A stretch of DNA of 64,000 bases from an uncultured bacterium (GTDB lineage Bacteria; Patescibacteriota; Patescibacteriia; UBA9570; XYC2-FULL-38-9): contig CALKUP010000016.1 in NCBI GenBank assembly GCA_937996685.1, forward strand, positions 18,284 through 82,283, read 5' to 3'. Each line of letters opens with the position of its first letter. The first letter of the stretch is position 1. This document shows, in pieces, positions 4,428 through 28,276 of this stretch. The notes beneath the pieces were generated by a model. That model was given only the letters and a program-made list of their open reading frames with translations, ran no database searches and was not told where the DNA came from. Made by a program: the position numbers and the translations under genes.

Positions 4428-5810
4428 ATGCGAAGCATTCTCAAATTGTTCGCGGTGGTCGCCGCTCTGGCCTTCGCGCTCGCCTGCAATGGCGGGAGCA
4501 CGAAGGACAGCGCTTTCGACACGTCGGTCGACACCGACACGCCTTACGTGGACGATGATGCTGATCAGTGGTCACCTGATCAAGGCGACTGCGATGACAG
4601 CAACGCGGCCATCAACCCCGCTTCTGATGAGGTGCGGGGCGACGGCATCGACAACGATTGTGATGGTGCTGACTTGCGCCTGAGCTACTCTGATCCGACC
4701 ACGTACGGCGGGTACAACGGCTGGCTGGTCGAGTCCGCGGCTGGTACCGCCTTTAGCTGCTTCGCCAATGTCACGGCGGGCGTCGGCGGCGTCGTGCGGT
4801 GCTTGCCGCTTGAAGACAGCGCCAACGTGTTGGATCCGAGCGATGCGGCGGTCACCTTCACCGGTGATGTCGACATGACGCTTGGAACCGGAGGCTCCGT
4901 CTTCTCGGATCAGTACTTCTGTCTCGGTGGAAGTGAATTCAACGCCGAGAGGGGTGTCATGGGTTGCTGGGGTCTTGGAATCCTGGATGTTCCGGGTGAC
5001 TACACCTTCGACGACGCGGTCTTCACCATCTCCGGTGTGAATCCCGGGGATTATGTTGACCGCCACTGGTGGGCGGACGTCACCGGAGACAACCGCATCG
5101 ACCTCGTCGTCAGCGGCGGCGCCCGCTACTGGGTCTTCGCAGACCTGATGTCCCTTTCTGGGGGTCTCACGCTCGACGACGCGGTCTTCTCGGTAGACAT
5201 CTGCCCGCAGGGAGGCTGCACCATCTTCGTGGGCGAGGAGGCTGCGTTTGCTTTTCCCGCGAATGCGCCGACCATGGTCTTCTCCGATTACCAGCAGGAG
5301 ACGGCGCCAACCGGCCAGGGCGTGCTCTACGCTATGGACCTTCCGCTCACCCCCGCTTCTCAGCCGGTTGAGATCGATCGCGCTCGGCCGGGTCATGTTC
5401 TTGGTTTTCGTGTCGCTACCCTCGAATTCGGGTCCGTGTATTACGTTACGACCGGCACCGGCTTCCGGGAGTACCTGTACGACGGCGCCTCCTGGACGGT
5501 TGAGGAACATGACCTTGGGTTCTCAACCTTGATTCCATACGACGTTGGCATGGACTGGTTCAGGTGCGAATCGGGCATGGCGCTGGCTGTTACCGAGGTT
5601 GAGTCTGGGCAAGGGCTCATCTTCCAAAATGGAGCCGTTCAGGCGACCATCCTCTTGGAGGTTGGCTGTGGCACGGTCGTGTACGGCGAAGAAAACGGTT
5701 CTCATATCCTGACGATGTGTCAGGATCTGGGTGATCGGAACCAGGGACGCGCGCCCTCCGGTGACGGCGGGAACGTGTACCAAGTGGAAACCTTGCATTC
5801 GCCTCTCTAG
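4428..5810 (+). CDS. GC-rich putative lipoprotein with MopE-like Cys/Asp metal-binding motif and FG-GAP/VCBS-like region
   Basis: Lipoprotein signal (LAFALAC). DQGDCDDSNAAINPASDEVRGDGIDNDCDGADL resembles the 'putative metal-binding motif' of MopE-type proteins. HWWADVTGDNRIDLVVSG is FG-GAP-like. Local GC is far above the flanks. Confidence 0.5.
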   Translation: MRSILKLFAVVAALAFALACNGGSTKDSAFDTSVDTDTPYVDDDADQWSPDQGDCDDSNAAINPASDEVRGDGIDNDCDGADLRLSYSDPTTYGGYNGWLVESAAGTAFSCFANVTAGVGGVVRCLPLEDSANVLDPSDAAVTFTGDVDMTLGTGGSVFSDQYFCLGGSEFNAERGVMGCWGLGILDVPGDYTFDDAVFTISGVNPGDYVDRHWWADVTGDNRIDLVVSGGARYWVFADLMSLSGGLTLDDAVFSVDICPQGGCTIFVGEEAAFAFPANAPTMVFSDYQQETAPTGQGVLYAMDLPLTPASQPVEIDRARPGHVLGFRVATLEFGSVYYVTTGTGFREYLYDGASWTVEEHDLGFSTLIPYDVGMDWFRCESGMALAVTEVESGQGLIFQNGAVQATILLEVGCGTVVYGEENGSHILTMCQDLGDRNQGRAPSGDGGNVYQVETLHSPL

Positions 5811-5905
5811 GAGGCGGCAAGAAGAGAGCAGTAGCTGTACAACGGCATTACGCTACACAGCACTGCTCTCGGCGTAGTAAGCGTTTATACAACATTACTA
5901 CGCCT

Positions 5906-5951
5906 CGTTATCAGAGTACAAAACAATACAGCGTTGTGTATTCTGATAACG
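5906..5951. repeat. 15-bp-arm inverted repeat (cgttatcagagtaca N16 tgtattctgataacg), candidate operator upstream of 5991 gene
   Basis: Near-perfect palindrome (1 mismatch) ending 40 nt before the ATG at 5991. It is preceded by two further perfect hairpins at 5824-5870 and 5871-5904. Confidence 0.4.
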
Positions 5952-5990
5952 TTACATCTCGTAATGTGTACATTCCATCTGGAGATTCTC

Positions 5991-6578
5991 ATGCGTTATA
6001 TGTCTATTGTATTGCTGGCTATGCCAGGGTGCTTTCATGGTCCTTCTTCACAGCCCCTTGTGCCGACTGTGACTGGCCTGACATTCACCCAAGGGTTTAT
6101 GGCTCGAAATATCGATATGGGAGATGATGGGCACATCACCGGCTTTATAGAAGAGCTAGAGCTGCAATTAGAAGTTCGCAATGGAGAGGTGATAGAGCCT
6201 GAGTCTTCAATGAAGCTGACACCAGGTCCTCATGGCATCAGCATAGTCGGCTTGTGGCTCGGCACAAAACAGTCGAAAAAACTGACTGGCCAGGCTGAGT
6301 GGCAACCGACGAAGTTTCAGCCTGACGACACGGGTAGCGTCGGCCCGGAAGAGTGCTTTACCATCACACTGGAATCGACAAATCCAGAGGTTGATCTCCT
6401 CGCACGGTTGTGGGGAGGTCTTCATCAACGTGAGGTGCTTATCGCGCTGAGTGTGCTCGGTGAGATTGAAGCAAGCGCGTGGCTTTCAGCAACTGAAGCC
6501 ACTCGTACAGATGATCGTTTCAATGGAGTTGAGCGACTGTGTCAGTCACCATTCCATGTTTTTCCTGGAGAGCAATAA
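5991..6578 (+). CDS. hypothetical lipoprotein (GC-rich island)
   Basis: ATG at 5991 with a GGAGA SD 5 nt upstream. MRYMSIVLLAMPGC lipobox-like signal. No recognisable domain. Confidence 0.45.
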   Translation: MRYMSIVLLAMPGCFHGPSSQPLVPTVTGLTFTQGFMARNIDMGDDGHITGFIEELELQLEVRNGEVIEPESSMKLTPGPHGISIVGLWLGTKQSKKLTGQAEWQPTKFQPDDTGSVGPEECFTITLESTNPEVDLLARLWGGLHQREVLIALSVLGEIEASAWLSATEATRTDDRFNGVERLCQSPFHVFPGEQ

Positions 6579-6636
6579 AGCTCAACAGGTCGATAACGGC
6601 ACTGCGTACAATGATAGATTGGGCAGTGTCATTTTT

Positions 6637-7509
6637 TTATTCAAGCTCAATTCTGGTTTCAATATCACTCAATCGCACGTGGGTGATATCTGGTCGAATT
6701 GCAATGAACACAAGCCAAATTAGGCAGCTGAGAAAGACGATGCCGAGAATACTCATAACAATGCCAAGGATACGCAAAATGACACGACCGCCATGGGTTG
6801 CCCAATATTCAATTTTTGAACCAAGACGTCGTCCGATGCGTTGCGCTTCTGTTGCAAATTCTTTGGCTCCGCGCTCAATATTTTTTTGCGTTTGCGCGAT
6901 CTGTTCTTGCGTGGCAAATTGCTGCGCACGACTTTTTAAATTCTCTAGCGTTACTTTCTCGCCACGCATTTCCATTTTTTCACTCACAGTTGTTGCAGGT
7001 GGAATCGCGATCCATAGTAAGATGTAAAAAAATAATGCAGTGCCGCCAGAAGCAAAAAACAATACAATAAAGATGATGCGAATAAAGACGGGGTCAGTTC
7101 CAAAATAATTCCCGATACCAGAACAGACGCCAGCAAGCACTGCGTTGTCCGCATCACGAAATAAGCGCCGAGGAGTGTTGTTGTCTGATTTTTCGTGTGA
7201 TCCAGCCGATGAATGAGATGACGGTGCTTCGTTGTCAGTCGTTCCGGCAAAATCAGCTGGCGTGCCCATTGCAGCAATCACTTGCGCAACATCATCAACC
7301 GAAATAGACGGGTGAGCAGTAGTGGTTTTTTCTGTGAGCAATTCCGCGATGCGATGTTCGATGTCACTGACAACTTCAGCAGCATCTTCTGTGTCCGCAA
7401 AATATGTTTCAACAGACTCTAAATAGGTGTGCAGTTTTTCATACGCATCTTCGTCGATGCGAATCAACGTTTGTGCGATATTGATAGTGATACTTTTTTT
7501 GATAGTCAT
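6637..7509 (-). CDS. PspC-domain membrane protein
   Basis: DNAVLAGVCSGIGNYFGTDPVFIRIIFIVLFFASGGTALFFYILLWIAIP matches the PspC domain. Downstream of padR on the same strand. Confidence 0.75.
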   Translation of the reverse strand: MTIKKSITINIAQTLIRIDEDAYEKLHTYLESVETYFADTEDAAEVVSDIEHRIAELLTEKTTTAHPSISVDDVAQVIAAMGTPADFAGTTDNEAPSSHSSAGSHEKSDNNTPRRLFRDADNAVLAGVCSGIGNYFGTDPVFIRIIFIVLFFASGGTALFFYILLWIAIPPATTVSEKMEMRGEKVTLENLKSRAQQFATQEQIAQTQKNIERGAKEFATEAQRIGRRLGSKIEYWATHGGRVILRILGIVMSILGIVFLSCLIWLVFIAIRPDITHVRLSDIETRIELE

Positions 7510-7532
7510 ACAGGTTGATTGTTATCGCCGAA

Positions 7533-7886
7533 TTATTGTTCTAAGAGATGAATTGTGTCGTTGAGGTTTTGCCATGTGTCAGTCAGCTGGTGTGACATTG
7601 CGCGACCGTCAGCGGTGAGTCGGTAATATTTGCGCGGCGGACCGGAAGATGATTCTTGCCATTCATACTCTAAGAGTCCCGAGCGACGCATCCGATTCAA
7701 AAGAGGGTAGAGCGTTCCTTCGACGACAATTAAATTGGCAGATTTCAGAGAACGCATGATGTCAGTCGTGTACATTGCACCGTCATGCAAAATCAGCATA
7801 ATGCAAAATTCCAAAAATCCTTTACGCATTTGCGATTGAATATTCTCAATATATTCTTCTTGTGGAGTGGGTGATGATGTTGTCAT
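7533..7886 (-). CDS. PadR family transcriptional regulator
   Basis: GFLEFCIMLILHDGAMYTTDIM...EGTLYPLLNRMRRSGLLEYEW...PPRKYYRLT is a PadR winged-helix signature. Confidence 0.8.
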   Translation of the reverse strand: MTTSSPTPQEEYIENIQSQMRKGFLEFCIMLILHDGAMYTTDIMRSLKSANLIVVEGTLYPLLNRMRRSGLLEYEWQESSSGPPRKYYRLTADGRAMSHQLTDTWQNLNDTIHLLEQ

Positions 7887-8011
7887 ATTCAGTACTTGGT
7901 ATTACACGGTACAGAGTATCACACACTAGAAAAACGTCAAGCGCGCTGCAGCGACGTTGTGTAAAAATCTATTTCCGCTATACTTTTTGTATTAGTGATT
8001 AAATAAAAAAT

Positions 8012-8770
8012 ATGAACAATCCCCTTTTTCAACGCATTGTCGTTGCAATTTCTATTGTTGCAATGATTGTGGTCAATGTATTGGCAAATATCATTCCATA
8101 TAATGGAAAACTAACAGGCGAAATCTCTGATTCATTTGCGATTTATTTTGTTCCGGCTGGATATGTATTTTCAATTTGGGGCCTGATTTATCTCTTACTT
8201 GGCGTCTATGCGGTGTATCAACTGATGCCAAAAACCTACACAAACCGAGCGCTCAATGGAGTGAGTTGGTGGGTTGTGCTGTCGAGTATCGCAAACGGTG
8301 CGTGGATTTTGCTGTGGCATTATCAATATTTTTATACGACGATTGTCGTGATGGCTGTGCTGCTTATTTCGTTGCTCATGATTTACACGCAATTAGCGCA
8401 CGGGCAGAAAAAGAAACAGAATGCACAATTTGCACGGTATGCGCGTTTGCCGTTTTCGGTGTACCTCGGTTGGATTAGTGTTGCGACGATTGCGAATGCA
8501 TCTGTGGTATTGACGCTCGCCAATTGGAATGGTTTTGGAATTGAGCCGATGTGGTGGTCTGCAATTATGATCGCGGTTGCGACAGTGCTTGGCTTGTTAA
8601 TGTTGGTTCGAGAAAAAGATATTGCCTATACATTAGTTCTTGTCTGGGCGTTTGTTGGCATTGGTATGAAATTTGCAGATGTGCCGGAGCTTGCGCAAGT
8701 GGCGTATTTTGCAGCAGCCTTGCTCACGCTCGTGTCGCTGGTTGTGTTTGTGCAAAAAAAGCGGAACTAA
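8012..8770 (+). CDS. TspO/MBR-like tryptophan-rich membrane protein (tentative)
   Basis: Multi-TM and Trp-rich. N-terminal NGKLTGEISDSFAIYFVPAGYVFSIWGLIYLLLG resembles TspO-like family proteins. Confidence 0.4.
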   Translation: MNNPLFQRIVVAISIVAMIVVNVLANIIPYNGKLTGEISDSFAIYFVPAGYVFSIWGLIYLLLGVYAVYQLMPKTYTNRALNGVSWWVVLSSIANGAWILLWHYQYFYTTIVVMAVLLISLLMIYTQLAHGQKKKQNAQFARYARLPFSVYLGWISVATIANASVVLTLANWNGFGIEPMWWSAIMIAVATVLGLLMLVREKDIAYTLVLVWAFVGIGMKFADVPELAQVAYFAAALLTLVSLVVFVQKKRN

Positions 8771-8808
8771 GACCCGCTTTGCGTTTTGTTTGTAACAGCA
8801 AGTGTGTA

Positions 8809-9786
8809 TTATTCCGCTTGCCGAGTTTTAATATTCCATTTTTTTACAACGCCCGCACGATGTTTTGTTGAGCATTCTTCGCTGCATGCACCGTTGCTAT
8901 CTTCAGCGCACGTATCACATAAAATCACCATTTTGTTACATTCTGCGTTTGAGCAGTTGTAATAGGTGTCACAGGCAGTGTCACAAAAGTCACAAGTGGA
9001 AATAATTGTGTGATGTTCGTCATCATTGAGTTGGACTTGGGTGCGATCATCAAATACATACAAACTGCCTTCCCATAAACCATCTGGAATTTCCGCAGTG
9101 TAATTCACAATGCCGTCTTGGAGTGAATAGACCTCTTCCGCTTCTTTGAGTGAGTCAACGTAGATCGATGATTTTTCACAACGAATATTTCCATTGCAAT
9201 ACATCAAGACTTTTTTGCCGCGGACCACGTCTTTGTGCTGATCCATCCATTCTGGAAAATCACGGAAGTGGTCAATATCTGGTGTGATCGCATTTTTGAA
9301 TCGACCAATGCGCGCTTCAAAGTTGTTTCGGGCATCGAGAATAACGACGTTATCTTCTTGCATCATGTCGTGAAATTCTTTCGGGCTCAGTTTTTGTGGG
9401 ACGATTGTTTCGTCATATTCTTTGGCTTTTCCAGATGCGACAATTTCTGAACGGACTTTGACGCGAATGCCAGGGAACGGATTTTTGTGATAATACTCTT
9501 TTTTGAAAAAAATATCAGAAAAGCGTGGGTCAGCATGCATGGTGCGGATATATTCTTCTGTGTCTGCATCCAGTCCAGCCAGGGTTCCGTTGATTCCTTC
9601 TGCACTAATCAGGGTTCGGCCCTTCAAATTGAGTTGCGCCATGAGTGTCTTTTGGGAGTCACGCAGCGCTTCAGGATCGGCAATATCGGTGTATTTATAA
9701 AACAACAGAATGGTGTATGGTCGGTCGGGTGTTTGGATGTCAGCTTTCATAGAAATAGAGTGTACTATGACTTGACATTTTGTCAA
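8809..9786 (-). CDS. UPF0176/TrhO-like rhodanese-domain protein (tRNA U34 hydroxylase family) with Cys-rich C-terminal extension
   Basis: N-terminal ILLFYKY...LKGRTLISAEGINGTL. Rhodanese core ...VLMYCNGNIRCEKSS. C-terminal tail with ~12 Cys (CDFCDTACDTYYNCSNAECNKMVILCDTCAEDSNGACSEECS). Alternative start MKADIQ at 9750. Confidence 0.65.
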   Translation of the reverse strand: MTKCQVIVHSISMKADIQTPDRPYTILLFYKYTDIADPEALRDSQKTLMAQLNLKGRTLISAEGINGTLAGLDADTEEYIRTMHADPRFSDIFFKKEYYHKNPFPGIRVKVRSEIVASGKAKEYDETIVPQKLSPKEFHDMMQEDNVVILDARNNFEARIGRFKNAITPDIDHFRDFPEWMDQHKDVVRGKKVLMYCNGNIRCEKSSIYVDSLKEAEEVYSLQDGIVNYTAEIPDGLWEGSLYVFDDRTQVQLNDDEHHTIISTCDFCDTACDTYYNCSNAECNKMVILCDTCAEDSNGACSEECSTKHRAGVVKKWNIKTRQAE

Positions 9787-9866
9787 AAATCAGCTACAGA
9801 AGCGATAGCTCACACCATGCACAGGCAATGATTGCTTGTTGTTTCCGTGGGTGTTCTGAGGATTTA

Positions 9867-10682
9867 ATGTCTGCTCCCTTCGTTGTCATCGAGGGTGCTC
9901 GGGTTACCCGTCAGCCGCAGTGGCTCGGGCTCATGGACGGGGCGTTGCTTCGTATCGGTGAGGAGGTTCACTTGGACGGGAATCGGCATACCGTCCCGAT
10001 CATCGGGCTGTCTGGACCCGAGGCCCGTGTTGGGCTTGATGCCGCCCATGTCACGTTCAGTCACTCCGGGCGATACGTCGCTTGGAGTGTGGGCATGACC
10101 TTGTTGGTCTTTGACCGAAATACCGGCGCGACTTTTGAAGTTCCGCTGTCTACGACGGAACGAAGCGTCACTGTACATGGGGTCAAGTGGATCGGTGAAA
10201 GCGAGATTCATGTGGACTGCACAGGATCGTGCGGACACCGGTGTCAGCAGTACCTTTTCTACAAGGGCCTGTCGTATAAAACATCCGCGCTTCCAGAAGC
10301 GGTTAAGCCGCTGGTGCTGGACGACCGGACTTCGCATGAGTTTCAGCAGACGACGCATGCGGCATTTAGTGCAAGGCTGAATGCCTTTGACGCTCGAACG
10401 GGGCTGATGGCCGCGGTCATCAAACCGGGCGAGTTGACTGTCTGGGACCTTGAGCGGTGGATCCGGCATCAGCTCGGAACCAACTTCAGCACCTACCAGT
10501 TGGGAGGTCTGGAGATGACCACCCCCAACTCGCACATCATCCACTCCCTTGAGTGGCTTCCGGGTAAGGTGCTCAGGGTCGCGGTCGCGCGGGTTGAGAG
10601 CAACCCGAATCCCGCGTTCGACGTGAGCTGCGTCTATAGCAACGGCGTATGGCACGCTGAGTTGTTGGAGCTTCGGTTCTAA
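9867..10682 (+). CDS. hypothetical protein (GC-rich island)
   Basis: In-frame ATG at 9867 with a GAGGA SD. Plus-strand composition is protein-like (W/F/Y/H-rich). The overlapping minus-strand ORF is the Arg-rich antisense. No recognisable domain. Confidence 0.45.
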   Translation: MSAPFVVIEGARVTRQPQWLGLMDGALLRIGEEVHLDGNRHTVPIIGLSGPEARVGLDAAHVTFSHSGRYVAWSVGMTLLVFDRNTGATFEVPLSTTERSVTVHGVKWIGESEIHVDCTGSCGHRCQQYLFYKGLSYKTSALPEAVKPLVLDDRTSHEFQQTTHAAFSARLNAFDARTGLMAAVIKPGELTVWDLERWIRHQLGTNFSTYQLGGLEMTTPNSHIIHSLEWLPGKVLRVAVARVESNPNPAFDVSCVYSNGVWHAELLELRF

Positions 10683-10932
10683 CAATAGGTGATGCCATGA
10701 CGTCTCCTGCTGACTCGCGTTTCCGAGCGAAACAGCAGACAACCACCACAACCGCGGACCAGAAACAGCAACAACTCGCAACTCGCGACGCTGCTTTCCT
10801 TGGTCCGCACGTTTTCAGAGCGCAGAATCAAAGCATTCTGCATTGTGAAAACTCACTACATCAAAACGCTCGCTACCATCACTGTTTTGTTGTATCCTTA
10901 TCGTATTAAAGGTAAGTCATAATAGAACAAAT

Positions 10933-11943
10933 ATGAAAATTCACATCACCCCAAAAAGTGCATTTTTGCATCTCTTTCTGATTGCAATGCTGTATGCATC
11001 AGTCATCGCAATCCTGACAGTGTTATTTCAATACGTGAATCTCGCGTATCCAGACACGCTCACTGGCGGATATTATTCACGGACCAATATTTTTGGATTG
11101 TTGAATTGGGGCAGTGCCGTGCTGGTGATTGCGTTTCCGGCACTTGTTGCAGTCTCGACTGTTTTGGAAAAAGAATTTTTAAAAGACGATACAAAGCGAC
11201 ACACACCAGAGCGAAAATGGCTGTTGTATCTCACGCAATTTATTACAGCGCTCACGATTGTTATTAGTTTAATGGCGCTGGTCTATAATTTTTATAATGG
11301 TGGCCTTACAATCCGTTTTGGATTGAAAGTGCTGGCAACACTCACTGTCGCGGCTGCAACGCTTGGATATTATCGTTGGGAATTAGTGCGGAGTGGAAAG
11401 CGCTCTCAGACTCCGCTGATTACAGCGGTGACATCAAGTGTCTGTGTTCTGATTGTGTTAGCAACAGCCTTTTTCATTGGCGCGTCTCCACAAAATCAAC
11501 GCGCAGAAAAATTTGATCAACAACGGATGGATCATTTGAGTAGCCTGCAATCGCAAGTGATTGGTTTTTGGCAAGCAAAAAAGACATTGCCAAATACGGT
11601 GGATGAAATGAATAACACGCTGCAAGGATACATCATTCCAAAAGATCCGGAGACATCAAAAGCGTATACCTATAAAAAAACAGGGGAATTGCAATTCGAA
11701 TTATGCGCAACGTTCGGCACACAGTCGTATAATTACGAAACAGAAAAGGCCGCGGGCAATGTGATTGATTCACGCGGAACAGCCGATGAAACAAAAGCGG
11801 CGAGCCTGTCTGTCGCGCCGTATGATCCATACCAAACTTGGCTGCATACGAAAGGTGAGTATTGTTTCACTCGAACAATCGATCCGGATTATTACAAAAC
11901 AGTTGAACCAGCTGCGGCTGCAACAACATCAGTTGTGCAATAG
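10933..11943 (+). CDS. membrane protein, C-terminal pseudopilin/GspG-like motif (possibly DUF5671-type)
   Basis: Four N-terminal TM helices. C-terminal ...LPNTVDEMNNTLQGYIIPKDPETSKAYTYKKTGELQFELCATFG resembles the conserved globular region of type II secretion/type IV pseudopilins. Confidence 0.45.
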   Translation: MKIHITPKSAFLHLFLIAMLYASVIAILTVLFQYVNLAYPDTLTGGYYSRTNIFGLLNWGSAVLVIAFPALVAVSTVLEKEFLKDDTKRHTPERKWLLYLTQFITALTIVISLMALVYNFYNGGLTIRFGLKVLATLTVAAATLGYYRWELVRSGKRSQTPLITAVTSSVCVLIVLATAFFIGASPQNQRAEKFDQQRMDHLSSLQSQVIGFWQAKKTLPNTVDEMNNTLQGYIIPKDPETSKAYTYKKTGELQFELCATFGTQSYNYETEKAAGNVIDSRGTADETKAASLSVAPYDPYQTWLHTKGEYCFTRTIDPDYYKTVEPAAAATTSVVQ

Positions 11944-12008
11944 CGATCCATTCTCATGTATATACAAAAAGAGCCCCGTCTATCGAGGCTCTTTTTTATG
12001 AGAAGTAT

Positions 12009-12818
12009 TTATGAGGTCAGTTTGTCAAAAAATGCCCACACGATTTCAAAAGCAATTAATATGATCACAACCCATTCAAGCGCATGTGATTGTCGGGTGT
12101 TTACTTCGTCGCGCAGTAGCTCTGTCATTTTATGGAGTGAGTCTAGTTTTTCTGACAGTACATTCCAGCGATCATCTAATTCTAAGTAGACAGCTGTTTT
12201 TGTGTAATATTGCGCAAGACGCGGCTCATCCCAAAACATATCTGGGCGATCTTCAGCAAGACCTGCAGTACTAACAGTGAATTGCAATTGAACGATAGAG
12301 CCAATTAATTTTTTAATCTGTTTAGCGCGTAATTTTGTGTGACCGGTTTCTGCCATTTCTGTTGGAAGATTCATCACGCGTTTTGAAACATCTGTTACTT
12401 GCTGTTCACTGTCTTCCATTTGAAGAGACTTCGCAACGGCGTATGAAATACTCATCAATGCTCGCATGTCATCATGCGGTACAACAAAAATATCTTCTAC
12501 AATGTCAAAATCACCATGATCAAGTTGGTAGCTGAATGTTTCGCTGACTGGTTTTTTTGAGAGGGGTTCAAAGATTTCTTCTTTTCGTTGTTCAATGAGC
12601 TCCAATACTGCTTCTGCGTTCCAGCTGACGACAGTTCCGTTTTTGAACAAAAAACAGACGCTGGCAGCATTCATGTCAGTGTGGAGCGAGGTAATTTGCA
12701 AGACCTCAGGTAGGCGAGTGATCGTATATTGATCAGTCATTGCTTCAAGAACGCGACCGAAATTGGCCCGAACACCGTATTTTACGGCTTTTGCGATTTG
12801 TGTGTTCATATGCGCCAA
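12009..12818 (-). CDS. DUF155 / RMD1 (YagE) family protein
   Basis: C-terminal WDEPRLAQYYTKTAVYLELDDRWNVLSEKLDSLHKMTELLRDEVNTRQSHALEWVVIILIAFEIVWAFF matches the DUF155 signature with its terminal TM helix. Confidence 0.75.
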   Translation of the reverse strand: MAHMNTQIAKAVKYGVRANFGRVLEAMTDQYTITRLPEVLQITSLHTDMNAASVCFLFKNGTVVSWNAEAVLELIEQRKEEIFEPLSKKPVSETFSYQLDHGDFDIVEDIFVVPHDDMRALMSISYAVAKSLQMEDSEQQVTDVSKRVMNLPTEMAETGHTKLRAKQIKKLIGSIVQLQFTVSTAGLAEDRPDMFWDEPRLAQYYTKTAVYLELDDRWNVLSEKLDSLHKMTELLRDEVNTRQSHALEWVVIILIAFEIVWAFFDKLTS

Positions 12819-12921
12819 TTATGCCAGACAATTAGTATTTTGTCAATATTGCGTCTTTTTTTCTCTTGTTTTATACTGTCTTTATTCCCGATAAGCGACT
12901 TATTCGTTACGGGATTTTTTT

Positions 12922-13941
12922 ATGCAAAAAAACACATCTACAATCAATTTAGACACTGAAATCGTTGAACATGCGCCGCTGCAGCGCCCAAATATCGGCT
13001 TTTTATACGTTCCGGACGATAAGCCAGTATTTGGGAATTCTCAGCAACTCGCTGCGTGGATGTCTGCTTTTTCTGAATTACACATGATTTGTGACGCTGA
13101 ATCATTATTTATTGCGGCGAGTCATCGTGATACGCCGGTTGCTGTGCTTGATCGCATTTGTGAAACGTTGGAAAAGCGATACGATGATTTTGATGGGTTC
13201 GTTGTTTTGTTGCCACGCCAAGACATCTTGTTTCAAGCGAGCAACTTATCTTTGCGCATTGCTCAAACAGGAAAGCCAATTGTCTGCACCAGTGATTTTG
13301 CAACAGGGTTGCAAACGCGTTTTCGAGATTATTATTCCGCAGCGTTCAAGTCAGAGATGATGTCCGCGTCGCATATTGCGTATGAAAATATTTCTGGTGT
13401 TGTTGCAATGGCAGGAATTGACGTCGTCGCTCCAGCGCACGCACGGATTGAATACACTGAGCAGCGTCCATATATCACCAGTACAGTCGCTGGGACGCTC
13501 GGCTTTATTGACTTTGGATTACACCTTGGTCGAAAAGCTGTGCGGCGCGCAAATACCAAGCCGTTGAAACTGGCGCGTTGGAAACACGTCGATGTACGGC
13601 GGATTGTGCTTGATGAAAAGCAAGCGCTCAATGTTCCGCGTCAATTATTACGAACGGAGAGAAAAACACGCGGCTTGATTGCGCAAGTATCTGGAGTTGC
13701 TCCGTTGTCTTTGTTGTCTGCGATTCCTCAGACGCTTCCAGTGTGTATCGTGTCTGCGTCAGGAGCGCAGATATCGTGGAACGGCGAGCATCGAACAGTG
13801 AGTAGTAGACATGCGAGTGCTGTTGCGGCGCAATTCACCGCCGTGCTTTCAACGCTCACACAAAAACAGTTAAAAAATCCACTGGCTATTGAACGGGCAA
13901 TGCAAAAAATCGTCTTTCCGTTTGTGAAATCAGCTGTATGA
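12922..13941 (+). CDS. hypothetical protein
   Basis: 339 aa, no confident family. Overlaps the next gene by 4 nt (ATGA), suggesting translational coupling. Confidence 0.5.
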   Translation: MQKNTSTINLDTEIVEHAPLQRPNIGFLYVPDDKPVFGNSQQLAAWMSAFSELHMICDAESLFIAASHRDTPVAVLDRICETLEKRYDDFDGFVVLLPRQDILFQASNLSLRIAQTGKPIVCTSDFATGLQTRFRDYYSAAFKSEMMSASHIAYENISGVVAMAGIDVVAPAHARIEYTEQRPYITSTVAGTLGFIDFGLHLGRKAVRRANTKPLKLARWKHVDVRRIVLDEKQALNVPRQLLRTERKTRGLIAQVSGVAPLSLLSAIPQTLPVCIVSASGAQISWNGEHRTVSSRHASAVAAQFTAVLSTLTQKQLKNPLAIERAMQKIVFPFVKSAV

Positions 13942-14510: not shown

Positions 14511-14619
14511 ATTCACTTCTTCCGTCTTTTTGCTGAATTTGCTATAGTATAAATAATACTATTTCCGCAAACATGTGCGAGATTTGCTCGTAATACGTTT
14601 GATTATTTTTATCATCACT

Positions 14620-19418: not shown

Positions 19419-19988
19419 TTATTTTTTCTTCATTGCAATCGTTGTTGAGAACTTGCCGCCCATGCGACCAATTGGCTGTTCCACAACAACCTCTCTCTCA
19501 AGAAGCTCAATATAGCGGTCAATCACTTTTTTGGCAAGTTCTGGGTGGGCTTTTTCACGACCACGGAGCAAAAGCTCAATTCGGACTTTGTCACCCTTAT
19601 CAAGGAATTTTTGACCAGCGTTGACGCGAACGAGCATATCATGTTCGCCAATTTTGACGGATAAACGAATGCCTTTTGTTTCGCCAGTGGTCTTTTTCGC
19701 ACTTGAACGGTTTTTTCGTTCTTGTTTTTCCTTTTGATACTGCAATTTGCCAAAATCAACGATTTTCGCAACTGGAGGAGTGCCTTTTGGGCCAACTTCG
19801 ACTAAATCAAGGCCGCTTTCTTGTGCTTTTGCGATCGCGTCAGCAGTTGGAGTCGGTCCAATTTGTTCTCCATCAACACCGATCAGAAATACTTCTGGAA
19901 CGTTGATTTCTTGATTTTTACGAAAAGCCTTTCCAAGGTCCGGCTTTTTGAAGTCTTGGCGGCGACGTGGCCGAAAATGTCGTGAAAT
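19419..19988 (-). CDS. infC: translation initiation factor IF-3, probable AUU start
   Basis: The track ORF (19419..19745) covers only the C-terminal domain. The frame is open upstream to a TAA and has no ATG/GTG/TTG. An ATT at complement(19986..19988) gives ISRHFRPRRRQDFKKPDLGKAFRKNQEINVPEVFLIGVDGEQIGPTPTADAIAKAQESGLDLVEVGPKGTPPVAKIVDFGKLQYQKEK..., a canonical IF3 N-domain. Confidence 0.75.
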   Translation of the reverse strand: MSRHFRPRRRQDFKKPDLGKAFRKNQEINVPEVFLIGVDGEQIGPTPTADAIAKAQESGLDLVEVGPKGTPPVAKIVDFGKLQYQKEKQERKNRSSAKKTTGETKGIRLSVKIGEHDMLVRVNAGQKFLDKGDKVRIELLLRGREKAHPELAKKVIDRYIELLEREVVVEQPIGRMGGKFSTTIAMKKK

Positions 19989-20011
19989 AGTAGTAAAACT
20001 TAATTCTTAAT

Positions 20012-20402
20012 TGGTGGAAATGACGGGACTCACACCCGTGTCTCGCTCGTGAAACATATATCATCTCCATGCTCAGATCGTTTGGTAATTTCGATAATGA
20101 AAACAAAAACGAACAAATGGTTCAGTATCTATCTTTGAGAAATGTCCATTACGCGCCAAAGAATCACGGAATGTAAGTCGCGGTTAAAGTGATACCGCAG
20201 GCAGTCGTAGCGACGTCAGACTGCGGCGATAGTTGCAGAATTTAGGCTGCAACAGGAGCCAATTCAAAAGACGCAAGCTTTGCAGCGGCAGTCTTCAAAC
20301 GGCTAGTGAAGTTTGCACTTCGAATAGTGAGATGTTTTACGAGAACCTCAACTCGACATGCAGATATATGTTGTCAATGAACGGTCAACGATAAACATCC
20401 CC
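20012..20402 (-). ncRNA. ssrA: tmRNA (SsrA), 391 nt
   Basis: Minus-strand RNA. 5-prime GGGGAUG pairs with 3-prime CAUUUCC-A-CCA (G3:U70 wobble as in tRNA-Ala). T-arm ACGGG-UGUGAGU-CCCGU. Internal tag frame GCA AAC UUC ... GCU CCU GUU GCA GCC UAA encodes ...FELAPVAA*. Sits immediately downstream of smpB. Confidence 0.8.
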
Positions 20403-20452: not shown

Positions 20453-20893
20453 TTATGATTGTTTCATTAAGCGAGCAAGATCTCGTTTAACGTCTCTTTG
20501 TTTGATTTTTTCACGTTTGTCGTGTTTTTTAAGACCCTTTGCGAGCTGCAACCGAACCTTAATCAAACCGGACTTACTATACACAATTTCAGGGACAATT
20601 GTCAACCCTTTTTCTTGTAATTTCCCAATAATTCGCTTGATTTCAGATTTGCGAAGCAAGAGCTTGCGGTCGTGCTCTGGAGTGTAGCCGACTTGGTTCT
20701 TGATTTGGTAGGCAGCAATGTGTGAATTGACTAGCCAAATCTCGTTATCACGCAGACTGACATAGGTTCCTTTGAGGTTCATGCGGCCATTTTTGACGGA
20801 TTTCACTTCAGCGCCAGATAGCACAATACCAGCTTCAAAAGCTTCGAGAAATTCGTAATTGTGACGTGCGTCTTTATTAATAATCCGTTCCAT
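20453..20893 (-). CDS. smpB: SsrA-binding protein SmpB
   Basis: MERIINKDARHNYEFLEAFEAGIVLSGAEVKSVKNGRMNLKGTYV... Confidence 0.9.
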   Translation of the reverse strand: MERIINKDARHNYEFLEAFEAGIVLSGAEVKSVKNGRMNLKGTYVSLRDNEIWLVNSHIAAYQIKNQVGYTPEHDRKLLLRKSEIKRIIGKLQEKGLTIVPEIVYSKSGLIKVRLQLAKGLKKHDKREKIKQRDVKRDLARLMKQS

Positions 20894-21158
20894 TGTGGCA
20901 GTATACGCGAGAGAGTGCGAAAAATCAACGATTTTCTGTTTATTTTCATGAATCTCTTTTTTGGCGGTATATCCATTGACAAAACAGGTGAAAAAGTGTT
21001 AGGTTCTTTTGATTTGCAATCAAGCAAATTGTTCGTTTTATTTATAGAGCAGGTGTATTTCTGTGGGCGCGCTGTGTGGCTGATTATGAAGTGATTCAGC
21101 AATAGAGCGCACTCACAGAAGCACGAATAACCGTGTGGTGACATGCAAGGAGGTATGC

Positions 21159-21641
21159 ATGTATCTTCGGCTTTGGAATTGCGAGAACCCCTTCGGACTC
21201 TCTTTTACGGACCTGTGCGTCCGTCTCGCCGAGAGAGACGATCCATACACGCTGTCGCTCACTGATCCCTCCGGTGCCGTCGTCAGGCTCAATGAGCGAC
21301 AGCTCAGGGATGGGCGGCCCTTCACCTTCTGCGAAGAAGGGGTCGGAATGACCCTGAGCCTCCTCTCTCATGAGGTGGGTCTTGGTTATTTTGATTTGAG
21401 CACGAGTGAGGATCAGCCGCTCCTGCCGGATCAGATCGCGCGAATTGCCGCACGTTGGTACATTGATGGAGTGGATGAATTGATTCTTCAGGTCGAGTCG
21501 AGCAAGGACCAGTCGCGAATCAGCTCCAAAGAAAGGAAAGAGGTGATCGACGCCTTTATCCGGCTCTGGTCAAGTGATCGCCGTCTTCCTCTGCTTGCCA
21601 TCGACGGCGAGGACGTGAATTGGGAACTCGTCACGCGGTAG
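21159..21641 (+). CDS. hypothetical protein (GC-rich island), paralog of 21878..22450
   Basis: ATG at 21159 with an AAGGAGG SD. C-terminal ...KERKEVIDAFIRLWSSDRRLP resembles ...EKRRAIVRAFIELWPQLARGKP in the next gene. Confidence 0.5.
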   Translation: MYLRLWNCENPFGLSFTDLCVRLAERDDPYTLSLTDPSGAVVRLNERQLRDGRPFTFCEEGVGMTLSLLSHEVGLGYFDLSTSEDQPLLPDQIARIAARWYIDGVDELILQVESSKDQSRISSKERKEVIDAFIRLWSSDRRLPLLAIDGEDVNWELVTR

Positions 21642-21877
21642 TTTTTATTGTGCGGGCTACTTAAAACATAGCCCGCACCAGAACTACCGCAGCACCTGCT
21701 CATTTTTTCTCAGTAAATCTCACGCAGATTTTTTGAGAAAAGATTGAATTATATTCGATCTGTTCATTTTTAATTTAGAGCAGACACGCTTTGTGGGTGA
21801 GATTTTGCATTGATGTGTATTATATTGATGCTGGATTTCACTCACAGAGCACGTTCGTCGTGCAAAGGAGAGATGCG

Positions 21878-22450
21878 ATGTTTGTTTACATCGGTCACGC
21901 CATCACTTGGGCTCAATTGTGTCGTCGATACCGCAGTCCGCATGGTGGAGACCCGTACGGTCTTCATCTTCCTGTTGATCGATTGGATTGGAAGCTGACT
22001 CGTAAGCAGCGGTCGAGCGTCGTAGACGGCATCTACGTGGTGAGTGAGCATCAGGCTCGAACCTGGGCAGAGTTCACCATCAACGATGGCGCAGGAGGTT
22101 TGTTCTTCAGTTGTGAGGAGAGCGCAGGAGGCTTTTTCGAGCTTGTTGGTTCTGACGACCGGCAAGGGGCTAAGGATGGCGCTGAGTTCACTCCTGAGTT
22201 TATTGTCGGGGTTTGCGCGGATTTCACGGAGATCGGTGGTCCTGCGCTTGAGGTCGACGTTGAAGACTTCTACGGCCATTCGCCTGACGATGAAGATTGG
22301 ACTTTCAAAGACGATCCTGAGAAGCGCCGCGCGATCGTGCGCGCCTTCATCGAGCTGTGGCCGCAGCTCGCTCGGGGCAAGCCCATGCCCAAGCTCAAGA
22401 TCTGCGGGAAGCGGATCCGCTACGGCGCGTACCCTAAGCACCCCTGGTAG
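21878..22450 (+). CDS. hypothetical protein (GC-rich island), paralog of 21159..21641
   Basis: ATG at 21878 preceded by AAAGGAGAGA. Acidic and W/F/Y-containing, protein-like. The antisense ORF 21842..22510 is judged spurious. Confidence 0.5.
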   Translation: MFVYIGHAITWAQLCRRYRSPHGGDPYGLHLPVDRLDWKLTRKQRSSVVDGIYVVSEHQARTWAEFTINDGAGGLFFSCEESAGGFFELVGSDDRQGAKDGAEFTPEFIVGVCADFTEIGGPALEVDVEDFYGHSPDDEDWTFKDDPEKRRAIVRAFIELWPQLARGKPMPKLKICGKRIRYGAYPKHPW

Positions 22451-22653
22451 CGTTCCTTCGGACGAATGAACGATTGACGAACTTTGAGGACTTGCGCAAC
22501 GCACCCTCAAAACCGTCAGTGCCTGCTCATCGTCTCTGAGTACGTCTCATGTAGATGTGTTGAGAGACGATTACAATGAAAAATAAAGAACTTACTAGAG
22601 TTTCGTGGTCTTTTTTGGTATACTCGAAAGAGTTATTATTGATTGATTTTATT

Positions 22654-23613: not shown

Positions 23614-23677
23614 AGACCATTTGGCAGAAAACCAAAAATCAACTATGATACATAGGTAATAAAAAATAATAGATTGT

Positions 23678-24370: not shown

Positions 24371-24374
24371 ATTC

Positions 24375-24896: not shown

Positions 24897-24922
24897 TATT
24901 TTACATACATTACTTTTTCTAT

Positions 24923-25849
24923 ATGACATACGATTTGATTATTATCGGCGGTTCAGCAGCAGGAGCATCAGCGGCAATTTATGGGGCTCGTCGCAAACTC
25001 AACTTGCTTCTTATTTCTGAAGATTTTGGCGGGGAAGTCGCGCGGTCTGGTGAAGTGGCGAACTATCCGGGTTTTGTGAATATTCAAGGGATTGATTTAG
25101 CGGAAGAGTTCAAAAAACACGTTGAAGCGAATGGTGTTGCGCCAGAATTGAATGTGCGTGTGACGTCAATGAAAAAAGACGGAGATGAATTTGTGATTAC
25201 AGCAACCAAAAATGGTGAAGAAATAACCTATCGTGCGTATGCAGTGATTGTGGCAACCGGTGTGCATCCGCGATATTTGGGAGTACCAGGAGAAGAAGAA
25301 TTTACTGGCAAAGGCGTGACATGGTGCACAACGTGTGACGGTCCATTATTCCGTAATAAAAAGGTGGTGACAATTGGCGGCGGCAACAGCGCACTTGAGT
25401 CCGCATTGATGCTTGCGGAAATTGCGACGCACGTGACATTGATTAACAAAAATGCGACGTTTAAGGGTGAGCAAGTGTTGATTGATAAAGCGACAGCGCA
25501 CGACAATATCGACATTATCTACAATGCAAAGACAGAAAAAATTACTGGTGAGTTAGTAGTGAACGGAGTAGATTATATTGATAGTGAAGGCAGCGCGCAG
25601 CACATTGACGCACAAGGAGTGTTTATTCACATTGGCTTAATTCCAAATAGTGGAATGGTTGGTGAGGATGTTGTGAAAAACCCAATGAAAGAAATTGAAG
25701 TCAATCAAAAATGTGAAACGAATATCGAAGGCTTGTTTGCGGCTGGAGATGTGACAACTGTTCCATATAAACAAATCGCCATTGCGACAGGGCAAGGCGT
25801 GATCGCGTCTTTGTCTGCGATTGAATATCTGAACCGCCGCGGCGCGTAA
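24923..25849 (+). CDS. trxB: thioredoxin-disulfide reductase
   Basis: DLIIIGGSAAGASAAIYGAR (FAD), CTTCDG redox-active disulfide, GGGNSA (NADPH). Confidence 0.85.
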   Translation: MTYDLIIIGGSAAGASAAIYGARRKLNLLLISEDFGGEVARSGEVANYPGFVNIQGIDLAEEFKKHVEANGVAPELNVRVTSMKKDGDEFVITATKNGEEITYRAYAVIVATGVHPRYLGVPGEEEFTGKGVTWCTTCDGPLFRNKKVVTIGGGNSALESALMLAEIATHVTLINKNATFKGEQVLIDKATAHDNIDIIYNAKTEKITGELVVNGVDYIDSEGSAQHIDAQGVFIHIGLIPNSGMVGEDVVKNPMKEIEVNQKCETNIEGLFAAGDVTTVPYKQIAIATGQGVIASLSAIEYLNRRGA

Positions 25850-25876
25850 GTAAGATTTACCCCCGTAAGTATTGAT

Positions 25877-25917
25877 AAAATAGCCTCTGTATGTTATAAT
25901 GCGAGGCTATTTTTTAT
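25877..25917 (+). terminator. intrinsic terminator after trxB
   Basis: aaaaTAGCCTCtgtatgttataatgcGAGGCTAtttttt. Confidence 0.55.
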
Positions 25918-26011
25918 TGAAAAAATAGTTGATCTTTGTCAAAAAATGGGCATCAAAAGCCCGTTCAGAGAAGCAAAAAAAATCCAACCCTTGAATAAAG
26001 AGAGGTTTGCC

Positions 26012-27292
26012 ATGAGCAAATTCGTTTTCGTGCCCCACGAGTCGACCGAGGCTGCTCCCCGGGTGATTCCCGAGGGTTGCTCGCCCGCTTTGGCGCGGTC
26101 GGTTGCTGTCATGAATGAGCTGAGTCTCCAAAGCATCACCTCGCAGGCGCGATTTACGGCCGCCGGTGCTGAGGTCGGCAAAATCCAGATCCGAGCGGTC
26201 TGGGTGCTGGTCGCCGTAACGGTGGTCAGCACACTCATGTCTGCGGGTGCTGGCGGGCTTGGTATTCACCTTCAGGCGGAAGGTTTGGAGTCAGCGTTTT
26301 CGTTTCTCGCGCCGAGCGCTTGCGGCGCAGCGCTCTCGGCGCTGCTCTGGCACCGTGCGGAGCACCGGGCGAAGGCTTTGGGTGCGCCAGAGCTCGGAGA
26401 GCAGTGGCGCAACTATTGCGCCGCGCGGGAGGCGCTGCGCAAAGCGATTTTTCTGTACCGAGCCGGAGTGATTGATGCACGAAGACTGAGCATGGTTTTG
26501 CGGCAAGTGTGCCTACAGGTTTGGGCGGCATCCCCACCTACCGACGAGGAGCTCTTCGCTCGTTGGCAAAGCGAGCAAGACCGATACCTCTTCGAGGATG
26601 GTGACGATGGGTTTTCGAAATTGGAGCTGGATCATTACGTCCAGCTCCGGACTGAAGGCCAGAAAGTCTGGATGGACGGAAGGCTAAAAGGCAAGCTCGC
26701 GAAGCTGCGTGAGGTGCACATCGCCCGTTTGCGCCAGATTCAGCTCTGGCAGGCGAGTGTCCGGTGGCTGCCATTTATTGGCGAAGCGGTTAGTGCACTC
26801 ATTGGTCGCCTGAGTTTGATTGAGGATCAGCGCTATGAGTGGCTGGCGGTCGAGAAGACCATTGCCGGCTACACTGAGGTCATCGAACAGATGGCCACGC
26901 CGCTGACTGCCTACCAAGAGTTTCTCATGCACTGTGCGGAAGCGCTGTGTGAGAAACTTGCAGAAGGCGATGCTGACAAGGCTCTGTATATTCACGGGAC
27001 CCTTGAGGGATTCGTCGGCCTGCCTCAGTTGACGCGTAAGATTGCTGAAGCGTTTGTTGCAGAGCGTTTCCCTGGCTCAGAGGAAGCGTTTACTGCCTGG
27101 AAGGAAGCGGAGCGTAAGTTCCTCCCCGAGCTGGCAAAGGTCACCGAGAACATTCTCGGTGCCGAGCACGCCGATTGGCTGCGCTTTCGCGTTACCGCAA
27201 CCAATAGCCTCGAGCAAGCGCTTTCGAGTATCTTCCTCCGCGGCGTCGCGGAAGGTGCTCCAAGCGGCGAAGGCGCAGAAGTCCCCGCATAG
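26012..27292 (+). CDS. hypothetical protein (GC-rich island)
   Basis: ATG at 26012 with an AGAGAGG SD. 426 aa and helical. The 3-prime end (…GEGAEVPA*) lies inside the first copy of a 133-bp repeat. Confidence 0.5.
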   Translation: MSKFVFVPHESTEAAPRVIPEGCSPALARSVAVMNELSLQSITSQARFTAAGAEVGKIQIRAVWVLVAVTVVSTLMSAGAGGLGIHLQAEGLESAFSFLAPSACGAALSALLWHRAEHRAKALGAPELGEQWRNYCAAREALRKAIFLYRAGVIDARRLSMVLRQVCLQVWAASPPTDEELFARWQSEQDRYLFEDGDDGFSKLELDHYVQLRTEGQKVWMDGRLKGKLAKLREVHIARLRQIQLWQASVRWLPFIGEAVSALIGRLSLIEDQRYEWLAVEKTIAGYTEVIEQMATPLTAYQEFLMHCAEALCEKLAEGDADKALYIHGTLEGFVGLPQLTRKIAEAFVAERFPGSEEAFTAWKEAERKFLPELAKVTENILGAEHADWLRFRVTATNSLEQALSSIFLRGVAEGAPSGEGAEVPA

Positions 27293-27399
27293 ATACGCAG
27301 GGCGATTCGCTGGAGATACCAGTTCTTCAGCGAATGACAACCGCCAGTTCCCGTCGACGCAGGTCAACGGAGAATTTCGGCGGTTTTTTCTTATAGAAA
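27266..27399 (+). repeat. direct repeat copy 1 (~133 bp) containing inverted repeat + hairpin/T-tract terminator
   Basis: ggcgaaggcgcagaagtcccCgcAtag...gcgattcgctggaga...cagcgaatgacaaccgccagttcccgtcgacgcaggtcaacggAgaatttcggcggttttttcttatagaaa. About 90% identical to 28296..28428. Confidence 0.8.
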
Positions 27400-27679
27400 A
27401 GAAGGAGGGATACATCTTGACAAATGAGGTTTATATACGTATGGTATTGAGTCTATTTTCTCTATAGAAAATAGCTGGTCTTTGAACCAAATAGTGAGCG
27501 TTTTAGTATCGTTTGCAGTACACAGTCAAGGAATCAAACATCTTCGTTATCAAGAAGGTTGTTGATTCTCTATTGTGTGCTGTGAACGATCGCGTGAGTC
27601 TAACCCGAAAATCACTTCAGGTACGACACACTCGAGCTTGCTCAGCATCACTGCGGTTTGTCCGCATGTGGAAGTACTC

Positions 27680-28276
27680 ATGGCTCGCTCTAATAGAAAT
27701 TCCCAGGCATTGGATACCTTGCTCACCGCCCTCCGCAATGCCGGAGGTGAAGTGCTTAAGGAGGAGCGGTTGTTGCATCTGCTCTGTGATCCTGCAATAG
27801 CCAGTAGGTTGGCGCAGGACTTGGTGTGTACGCACCTGCAGCGTCAGAAATCCCTCCCTCGGGTGGAGGACCTGGTCATCAGCAACACGATCATTACGGT
27901 CTACTACCGGGCTGATGGTTCCGAAGAAGGTCATTACGACCACCTCTTTCCCTTTCAGTACTTCCCTAAGAAGGTGCGTGTTCGTTGGGTAGAACTGCCT
28001 TACGGATTTGGAGCTACTACGTCCGATGTTGCAAATCATCTCCGTGCAAGAGGACTTGATGCCCCCGTTGACGTGGCGGTGGTGAAGGCCCTTCTTCTTC
28101 ATGTGAAACGAATGAACTTTATGGTCTTGTTGCGAGACAAGGCCTATATCTGGGATCCGAGCGTTCCGAACAAGGTGGTGAGCCGGTTCAATCGAGACAC
28201 TGAGCTGAATCAGGAAGCGCTCAATGGGTCCGCGACCTTCATTGGCATCGTCGATGTCGAGGTGCTCGACAAATAG
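27680..28276 (+). CDS. hypothetical protein (GC-rich island)
   Basis: In-frame ATG at 27680 (MARSNRNSQALDTLLTALRNAGG...). No recognisable domain. Bracketed by the two repeat copies. Confidence 0.45.
   Translation: MARSNRNSQALDTLLTALRNAGGEVLKEERLLHLLCDPAIASRLAQDLVCTHLQRQKSLPRVEDLVISNTIITVYYRADGSEEGHYDHLFPFQYFPKKVRVRWVELPYGFGATTSDVANHLRARGLDAPVDVAVVKALLLHVKRMNFMVLLRDKAYIWDPSVPNKVVSRFNRDTELNQEALNGSATFIGIVDVEVLDK

Follow-up and report, generated by a model that had tools for sequence, protein, structure and literature searches.

The 64,000-nt stretch analyzed here (the window; positions 18,284 to 82,283 of contig CALKUP010000016.1, assembly GCA_937996685.1) carries seven GC-rich orphan open reading frames (ORFs), named O1 to O7, which lie at four sites (islands 1–4) in the DNA of an uncultured bacterium. 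We consider them to be small islets that a Patescibacterium, whose own genes lack Shine–Dalgarno (SD) motifs, acquired horizontally at different times, and put the probability of this reading at about 0.6. The putative foreign origin is supported by three independent differences of style, namely GC content overall and at third codon positions (GC3), the SD motifs, and a set of stop codons rich in TAG. The seven ORFs, all of which lie on the plus strand, are listed below with product lengths in amino acid residues (aa); z values refer to the 44 native ORFs of the window.

O1, 4428..5810, plus strand: 460-aa acidic, Cys-rich predicted lipoprotein; SD 5-mer; GC 0.608, GC3 0.729 (z 8.8 and 7.6)
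O2, 5991..6578, plus strand: 195-aa ORF with a short lipoprotein-like N-terminus (MRYMSIVLLAMPGC); GGAG upstream; GC 0.509, GC3 0.474 (z 3.5 and 1.9), marginal only
O3, 9867..10682, plus strand: 271-aa β-rich cytoplasmic protein (284 aa if the start is at 9828); GC 0.578, GC3 0.681 (z 7.2 and 6.5)
O4, 21159..21641, plus strand: 160-aa cytoplasmic protein, distant paralogue of O5; perfect AAGGAGGT upstream; GC 0.559, GC3 0.652
O5, 21878..22450, plus strand: 190-aa tandem paralogue of O4; SD AAGGAG; GC 0.569, GC3 0.634
O6, 26012..27292, plus strand: 426-aa all-helical protein with at least one transmembrane segment (residues ~57–85); SD 5-mer; GC 0.594, GC3 0.656
O7, 27680..28276, plus strand: 198-aa cytoplasmic protein bracketed by R1 and R2, the two copies of a direct repeat; GC 0.531, GC3 0.613 (z 4.7 and 5.0)

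The 64-kb window has an overall GC content of 45%. Its 44 native ORFs, which served as the composition reference, exhibit a GC of 0.442 (standard deviation 0.019, maximum 0.480) and a GC3 of 0.391 (standard deviation 0.044, maximum 0.489). All orphans except O2 deviate clearly from these values (GC z = 4.7–8.8, GC3 z = 5.0–7.6); the status of O2 as a foreign gene is uncertain, since its composition is only marginally atypical. In 1-kb windows the GC content peaks at 0.62 (4.5–5.5 kb), 0.54 (10–11 kb), 0.52 (21.5–22.5 kb), and 0.59 (26–27 kb), which bears out the elevated GC that a preliminary description of this DNA had claimed for four segments. Outside the peaks it is approximately 0.40–0.47, and no further GC island is found in such windows between 29 and 64 kb. 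GC3 exceeds GC at first positions (GC1), and this exceeds GC at second positions (GC2), in O1, O3, and O4, while GC3 and GC1 are similar in the other orphans. The excess is restricted to each orphan coding sequence (CDS) and the structured element just 3′ of it; the island spacers and the regions upstream of the orphans have a GC of 0.35–0.44, compared with 0.41 for native intergenic DNA.

An SD motif, defined as at least a 4-mer of AAGGAGGT within 20 nt upstream of the start, precedes six of the seven orphans and one of 37 native genes (Fisher p = 6.8e-6). This clean separation of orphans from native genes is the most useful new point of the analysis, and the strong SDs reported in the preliminary description carry more weight than its author realized. 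O4 possesses the full 8-mer, O5 a 6-mer, O1 and O6 5-mers, and O2 a 4-mer. The native genes of the lineage point to SD-independent initiation. An anti-SD motif has been detected in only 48% of Parcubacteria 16S rRNAs (PMC9297842), and an SD-less host is therefore plausible. The stop codons of the orphans are TAG in five cases, TAA in two, and TGA in none, whereas 45 native genes use TAA 33 times, TAG seven times, and TGA five times (p = 0.005 for TAG, orphan versus native). Unusually stable hairpins lie 3′ of O1, O4, O6, and O7 (z = −3.7 to −6.4 versus shuffled sequences). A scan with Rfam reveals only the transfer-messenger RNA (tmRNA); islands 1 and 4 are without a match save a chance microRNA at E = 0.29.

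To judge by gene content and synteny, the source genome is that of a Kerfeldbacteria-like Patescibacterium, in agreement with the earlier guess at this phylum. The window contains genes typical of Patescibacteria (the candidate phyla radiation, CPR), including those for DUF5671 and PspC proteins, SmpB with tmRNA, class II fructose-bisphosphate aldolase (FBA), DsbA/MauE/TrxB, and SecA, as well as pentose-phosphate genes and a mur/ftsW cluster. The closest species-representative genome is a Candidatus Kerfeldbacteria metagenome-assembled genome (L001), with 75% identity in FBA and shared synteny from fba to beyond transketolase. A closer relative, found through its O3 homologue, is a 10.3-kb contig with 45% GC (L082; GCA_044233365.1), in which the gene order matches that of the window from the AI-2E transporter to the genes past DUF155. 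Its genes flanking island 1 are 55–95% identical to their window counterparts; the two genomes are overall not very close. SD motifs precede none of nine native genes on L082 and, as weak cases, three of 12 on L001. Presence or absence in sister genomes, proposed as a check in the preliminary description, gives a divided answer at the syntenic loci: island 1 is missing from L082 and island 4 from L001, but O3 is present in L082. Islands 1, 2, and 4 were compared in this way, and island 3 sits at a break in synteny with L001.

The GC-rich ORFs are real protein-coding genes, because O3 shows dN/dS ratios of 0.27–0.58, O4 and O5 are paralogues, the frames extend over 160–460 codons, and GC follows codon position. 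O1, O3, O6, and O7 are also called on the plus strand by public gene callers. The preliminary description had found no recognizable domains; this holds for Pfam, NCBIfam, PHROGs, and PADLOC, with the exception of a MopE-type motif (PF11617) in O1. For O2, O4, O5, and O7 homologues were sought in profile libraries, phages, and plasmids, and for O7 also in IMG/VR; tblastn of the four against phages and plasmids yielded no match, nor did O6 or O7 match anything in IMG/VR. Sequence searches of the PDB with O1, O3, and O4/O5 returned nothing significant. Among potential donor lineages O6 is without homologues, O1 is matched in its motif only, and O3 has homologues solely in the sister lineage.

O3, the single gene of island 2, is inherited rather than newly acquired, since it occupies the same locus with the same GC in the L082 lineage. 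Its homologues form one cluster (P0046; 46% identity, 100% coverage). The L082 orthologue lies at the same site between trhO and the DUF5671 gene, has a GC of 0.592 and a GC3 of 0.686, and retains GGAG ahead of a conserved ATG; the locus arrangement is the same in a second assembly, GCA_041443065.1. According to the preliminary description, genes that keep both locus and GC throughout a broad clade would be ancestral; such a situation is seen for O3 alone, at the shallow depth of two lineages. At the protein level the two copies are 63% identical in the N-terminal part, 25% in the center, which also contains a 22-aa indel, and 71% in the C-terminal part, and the conserved ends are approximately 80% identical as DNA. 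The corresponding dN/dS values of 0.43, 0.58, and 0.27 show that O3 is under purifying selection. GC3 in both copies is 0.65–0.67 in the N-terminal part and center and 0.83–0.84 in the C-terminal part. The GC of the O3 center is not simply a fading relic, because this part is saturated at synonymous sites (dS 1.6) and yet GC3 is high in both lineages; either the center was replaced through recombination with a GC-rich allele or its GC is maintained. That a hypervariable, inherited gene should keep so high a GC is the most puzzling point of the analysis.

The contrast between O3 and its neighbors partly reflects the unusual conservation of the adjoining PadR–TrhO block. PadR, a 252-aa protein, and TrhO are 91–96% identical to their L082 counterparts with a dS of 0.5–0.6, whereas the genes flanking the block are 43–87% identical with a dS from 1.3 to above 2.5 or saturation (at least 1.6 for the DUF5671 and DUF155 genes). 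The block together with the N-terminal part of O3 (window 7248–10115, L082 2656–5499) is 86% identical as DNA and may reflect recent recombination between the two lineages. An AlphaFold2 model of O3 from a three-sequence alignment reached a predicted local distance difference test score (pLDDT) of 45, and neither a signal peptide nor a known domain is found in the protein. With respect to a possible target of a diversity-generating retroelement, there is no reverse transcriptase in the window and no template-like repeat of O3; the variable part comprises approximately 110 central residues including the 22-aa indel, unlike the short C-terminal variable region of such targets. The region past the O3 stop (10697–10930, plus strand) has a GC-rich tail of about 120 nt and a possible small ORF; it is probably noncoding, because 22 and 24 nt are deleted from it in L082.

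Island 1, by comparison, interrupts a junction that is tight in L082, where the AI-2E gene (584–1657) and pspC (1721–2917) are 63 nt apart; the window holds 2.5 kb with O1 and O2 at this point. The features other than the ORFs are as follows (MFE, minimum free energy).

Island 1, 4150..6636, no strand: stretch between the AI-2E transporter start and the pspC stop; absent from L082
Three consecutive stable hairpins, 5811..5945, plus strand: downstream of O1; MFE −53.4 kcal/mol, z = −6.0 versus shuffles; no Rfam match

The comparison is compatible with either an insertion with replacement in the window lineage or a deletion in the L082 lineage. The PspC-domain protein of the window has 290 aa (6637–7509, minus strand) and its L082 orthologue 398 aa, the latter with approximately 130 extra C-terminal residues forming a LiaF-like membrane domain. 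Truncation occurs right at the edge of island 1, and tblastn detects no remnant of the L082 C-terminal domain in the window. We had for this reason rejected the idea that O2 is an antisense remnant of the lost pspC domain; O2 itself has no family, phage, or L082 match. O1 has a net charge of −51, 12 Cys residues, and a hydrophobic N-terminus (MRSILKLFAVVAALAFALAC) which, read by eye, fits a lipobox (...FALAC); a lipoprotein N-terminal profile matches weakly (E = 0.0045), and lgt is present in the window at 33466–34263. With a signal peptide, a lipobox Cys, and Lgt in the genome, O1 is predicted to be a lipid-anchored or secreted lipoprotein. The PF11617 match covers residues 54–81 and scores 32.5 bits against a Pfam gathering cut-off of 27, and BLASTP reveals 50–70% identity over the motif to repeats in protein clusters P0002 and P0014. 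Database matches to O1 consist of itself and motif-only proteins covering 6–21% of the query, those named being from Desulfuromonas, Geopsychrobacteraceae, Myxococcota, Sandaracinus, Flavobacteriales, and Pseudomonadota, none of them actinobacterial. No homologue was found for residues 90–460.

At the site of island 4, L001 has 36 nt between trxB (11820–12767) and the dsbA-like gene (12804–13547); the window has 2.6 kb with O6 and O7 there.

Island 4, 25850..28465, no strand: stretch between the trxB stop and the dsbA-like start; absent from L001
Promoter-like site TTGATA-17-TATAAT, 25872–25900: ahead of O6; consensus match only
R1, 27261..27416, plus strand: first direct-repeat copy, with two stable hairpins and a U-run; MFE −47.8 kcal/mol, z = −5.7
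Promoter-like site TTGACA-17-TATGGT, 27417..27445, plus strand: upstream of O7; 10 of 12 consensus positions, consensus match only
R2, 28291..28436, plus strand: second direct-repeat copy, beginning 15 nt past the O7 stop and ending 29 nt ahead of the dsbA-like gene; z = −3.7

The two copies of the repeat (R) are 92–94% identical over 140–156 nt at a spacing of 1029–1030 nt, and each folds into two hairpins followed by a U-run. The first 30 nt of R1 are the last ten codons of O6, and the promoter-like site of O7 begins at the base where R1 ends; such sites are not enriched in the region over shuffled sequences. The layout suggests one of two histories: O7 and its promoter may have been added behind O6 through recombination within R, or R may be a repeated terminator-type element of the source genome, O6–R–O7–R having arrived as one piece. 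A 30-mer of the R core is absent from metagenome_contigs and viral_contigs, there are no copies at the other islands or fetched loci, and a reading of both strands reveals no integron core sites (RYYYAAC or GTTRRRY). For islands 1 and 4 alike, gain in the window lineage and loss in the relatives would both account for the pattern. O6 found only itself in an exhaustive HMMER search of 1.84e9 (1.84 billion) representative proteins and is a singleton in clustering at 90%; the 90% cluster of O7 contains only its own two start variants. The single-sequence AlphaFold2 model of O6 is helical at low confidence (pLDDT 42). A SLATT/DUF4231-like N-terminus, considered in view of a pattern of two transmembrane segments plus W..Y..R..E, found no Pfam match at E ≤ 1 and is not claimed.

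Island 3 contains the tandem pair O4 and O5, which are 24–27% identical (BLASTP, 24% over 130 aa, E = 1e-4); this paralogy settles the plus-strand frame of O5 over an equally long antisense ORF. O5 has no match in phages or plasmids.

O4 3′ hairpin, 21637–21688: z = −6.4 versus shuffles

Residues 104–152 of O4 show weak similarity to the AVAST accessory protein Avs3b (E = 0.0012 in PADLOC, 0.012 in NCBIfam), which is far below the 200-bit family cut-off and probably due to chance, so that an assignment to Avs3b was rejected. The tmRNA gene (20012–20402, minus strand; Rfam 86 bits) lies directly downstream of smpB (20453–20893, minus strand). Island 3 starts on the promoter side of smpB, and the 3′-end of the tmRNA points away from it; the island is therefore not at the usual integration site at the 3′-end of ssrA.

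If the orphans are indeed imports, foreign accessory genes would have been inserted singly or in pairs at intergenic sites of an SD-less genome of approximately 44% GC, and would have kept the style of another kind of genome, with a GC3 of 0.6–0.7, SD-led starts, TAG stops, and long 3′ hairpins. Since the window contains no recombinase, the route was presumably DNA uptake with subsequent illegitimate or short-homology recombination, and at island 1 the 3′-end of pspC appears to have been replaced in the process. O3 would have occupied its locus before the split from the L082 lineage and have diverged quickly since, chiefly in the center. Of the predicted products, O1 is a lipoprotein of the cell surface, O6 a membrane protein, and O3, O4/O5, and O7 are small cytoplasmic proteins. 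The genes would then have been kept as fast-evolving strain- or genus-specific accessory genes, and we surmise that strain-specific surface or conflict functions are their most likely roles. The preliminary description had proposed recurrent acquisition from a high-GC donor; recurrence fits loosely, given that the islands differ in distribution among relatives. Several points weigh against acquisition. A donor homologue was found for none of the orphans in the searches described, and the case for transfer is consequently one of style; as a cause of the missing homologues we propose rapid divergence after transfer, such as is visible in O3. No integrase, transposase, or tRNA target occurs in the 64-kb window, where direct repeats are found only around O7. 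The GC excess ends at CDS boundaries next to native-like spacers, unlike that of a co-transferred GC-rich block. Finally, the center of O3, saturated and at 25% amino acid identity, has the same GC3 of 0.65–0.67 in both lineages and looks maintained, not decaying.

These last two points are also what the main rival would explain, namely that the orphans are lineage-native, fast-evolving genes in which coding GC is maintained by selection or by GC-biased repair with allelic recombination. A shared locus and GC of O3 in two lineages would be natural under it, as would the lack of donor homologues for O1 (beyond the motif), O3, and O6, and the low dS (0.5–0.6) of the block from PadR and TrhO to the N-terminal part of O3 hints at recombination between lineages. 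We nonetheless regard it as unlikely, if worth serious attention: it leaves the SD motifs and TAG stops of just these genes unexplained, presumed highly expressed native genes (those for L20, FBA, and IF3) are not GC3-rich, islands 1 and 4 are simply missing from relatives, and a GC3 shift of +0.25 to +0.35 far exceeds any biased-conversion effect reported in bacteria of which we are aware. More doubtful still is the idea that the orphans constitute a dedicated, self-maintaining, hypervariable gene pool of the CPR lineage and not random imports, which is suggested by their coherent style within AT-rich, native-like spacers and by at least one orphan that keeps this style through saturating divergence. 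One conceivable mechanism is that they are units the size of a transcript, SD through terminator, which the lineage captures from a partner organism or element and which repeated replacement keeps distinct; another is that they are translated through an initiation route other than that of the SD-less core genome. If true, such a pool would be a new form of compartmentalized accessory genome in episymbionts.

The repeat R and the 3′ hairpins raise the question of whether a site-specific cassette system, either integron-like or run by a recombinase elsewhere in the genome, carries the orphans as cargo and uses R as its recombination site. O7 and its promoter-like site are bracketed by the 92–94% identical two-hairpin repeats, R1 overlaps the 3′-end of O6, all seven orphans share one orientation, and strong hairpins also follow O1 and O4. 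We judge this improbable, given that R exists in two copies, both in island 4, with none at the other islands, the fetched loci, metagenome_contigs, or viral_contigs; no integron core sites are seen in R, there is no integrase in the window, and R ends in a U-run like an ordinary terminator. The preliminary description had favored an actinobacterial host of the epibiont as the specific donor. Raised GC and strong SD motifs would fit Actinobacteria, and host-to-epibiont transfer is under discussion for Saccharibacteria, but we know of no host for Kerfeldbacteria, and the orphan GC of 0.53–0.61 lies below typical actinobacterial values. Had the genes come from a typical high-GC actinobacterium, a set of seven stops without TGA would be unusual. 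Actinobacteria are heavily sampled, yet none of the matches to O1, O3, or O6 is actinobacterial: O6 has no homologue, O3 has homologues only in the sister lineage, and the named MopE-motif matches are to Desulfuromonadota, Myxococcota, and the like. A survey of 125 Patescibacteria moreover assigned one of approximately 130 inferred transfers to Actinomycetota (PMC12455944), and this donor is in our opinion very improbable. An assembly or binning artifact, in which foreign reads were joined into a Patescibacteria contig, is hardly credible. It is true that an independent ENA contig from the same population (L083; 1052 nt, low coverage) ends at 21120, just ahead of O4, and that a Logan contig with O7 measures only 1059 nt, but short contigs are explained by the 1.9x coverage and the R repeat. 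The O3 island recurs at the same locus in two other assemblies, and native sequence lies on both sides of each island within one 155-kb contig.

Islands of horizontal gene transfer in Patescibacteria are documented, making up to 13% of genome length in 125 aquifer genomes with mostly other Patescibacteria as donors (PMC12455944), and the kind of import seen here is thus not new. As in that survey, a streamlined CPR genome has accessory genes of atypical composition set among conserved ones; their presence varies from relative to relative, and their products are mostly hypothetical or membrane-associated. The present islets differ in comprising one or two genes, with no mobility genes in the window and no traceable donor, and in their SD use and stop codons. 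Integron cassette arrays and clusters of attC sites lacking integron-integrases (CALINs) resemble O6–R1–O7–R2 in their co-oriented ORFs, each followed by a structured repeat (here approximately 150 nt, ~92% identical). The differences are that O6–R1–O7–R2 has only two repeats, which terminate in a U-run like that of a terminator and show no attC core sites, that integrase and attI are absent from the window, and that O7 is preceded by a promoter-like site of its own. O1 shares with MopE-type proteins (MopE of Methylococcus, PDB 2vov) a Cys/Asp-rich motif at residues 41–86 and, with many members, a predicted secreted or lipid-anchored location, but it has a single putative metal-binding motif, its other 370 residues are without relative, and the PDB match is at E = 0.039. 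O3 is reminiscent of mosaic diversifying surface or conflict genes in having conserved ends (63% and 71%) around a 25% center with an indel, next to neighbors that are 86–95% identical. It differs in that it has no signal peptide or known domain and that its alleles come from only two lineages; other nearby native genes are only 43–73% identical, the PadR–TrhO block being the unusually conserved part.

In the tiny, presumably host-dependent genomes of CPR bacteria, retained strain-specific genes are prime candidates for host interaction or defense. The imports are recognizable by composition and translation signals, and the SD motif could flag foreign genes genome-wide in SD-less lineages, including imports with ameliorated GC. 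High-GC orphans in an epibiont are not per se evidence of transfer from an actinobacterial host.

Other genes of the window deserve brief mention. Two very large ORFs on the plus strand have native composition, each with a GC3 of 0.29: one at 14575–18684 (1369 aa), which lacks Pfam and NCBIfam domains and has no relative in genome_contigs, and a second at 58832–63205 (1457 aa). The DUF155 protein has a single relative in metagenome_contigs, at 37% identity. The infC frame (19419–19990, minus strand) is open upstream of the listed 108-aa ORF and there encodes the IF3 N-terminal domain; the extended frame lacks an ATG, GTG, or TTG start and probably begins with a noncanonical codon, as is common for infC. 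Transketolase is split over two adjacent genes (30450–32318, plus strand), one encoding the N-terminal half and the other the pyrimidine-binding and C-terminal half, an arrangement also found in L001.

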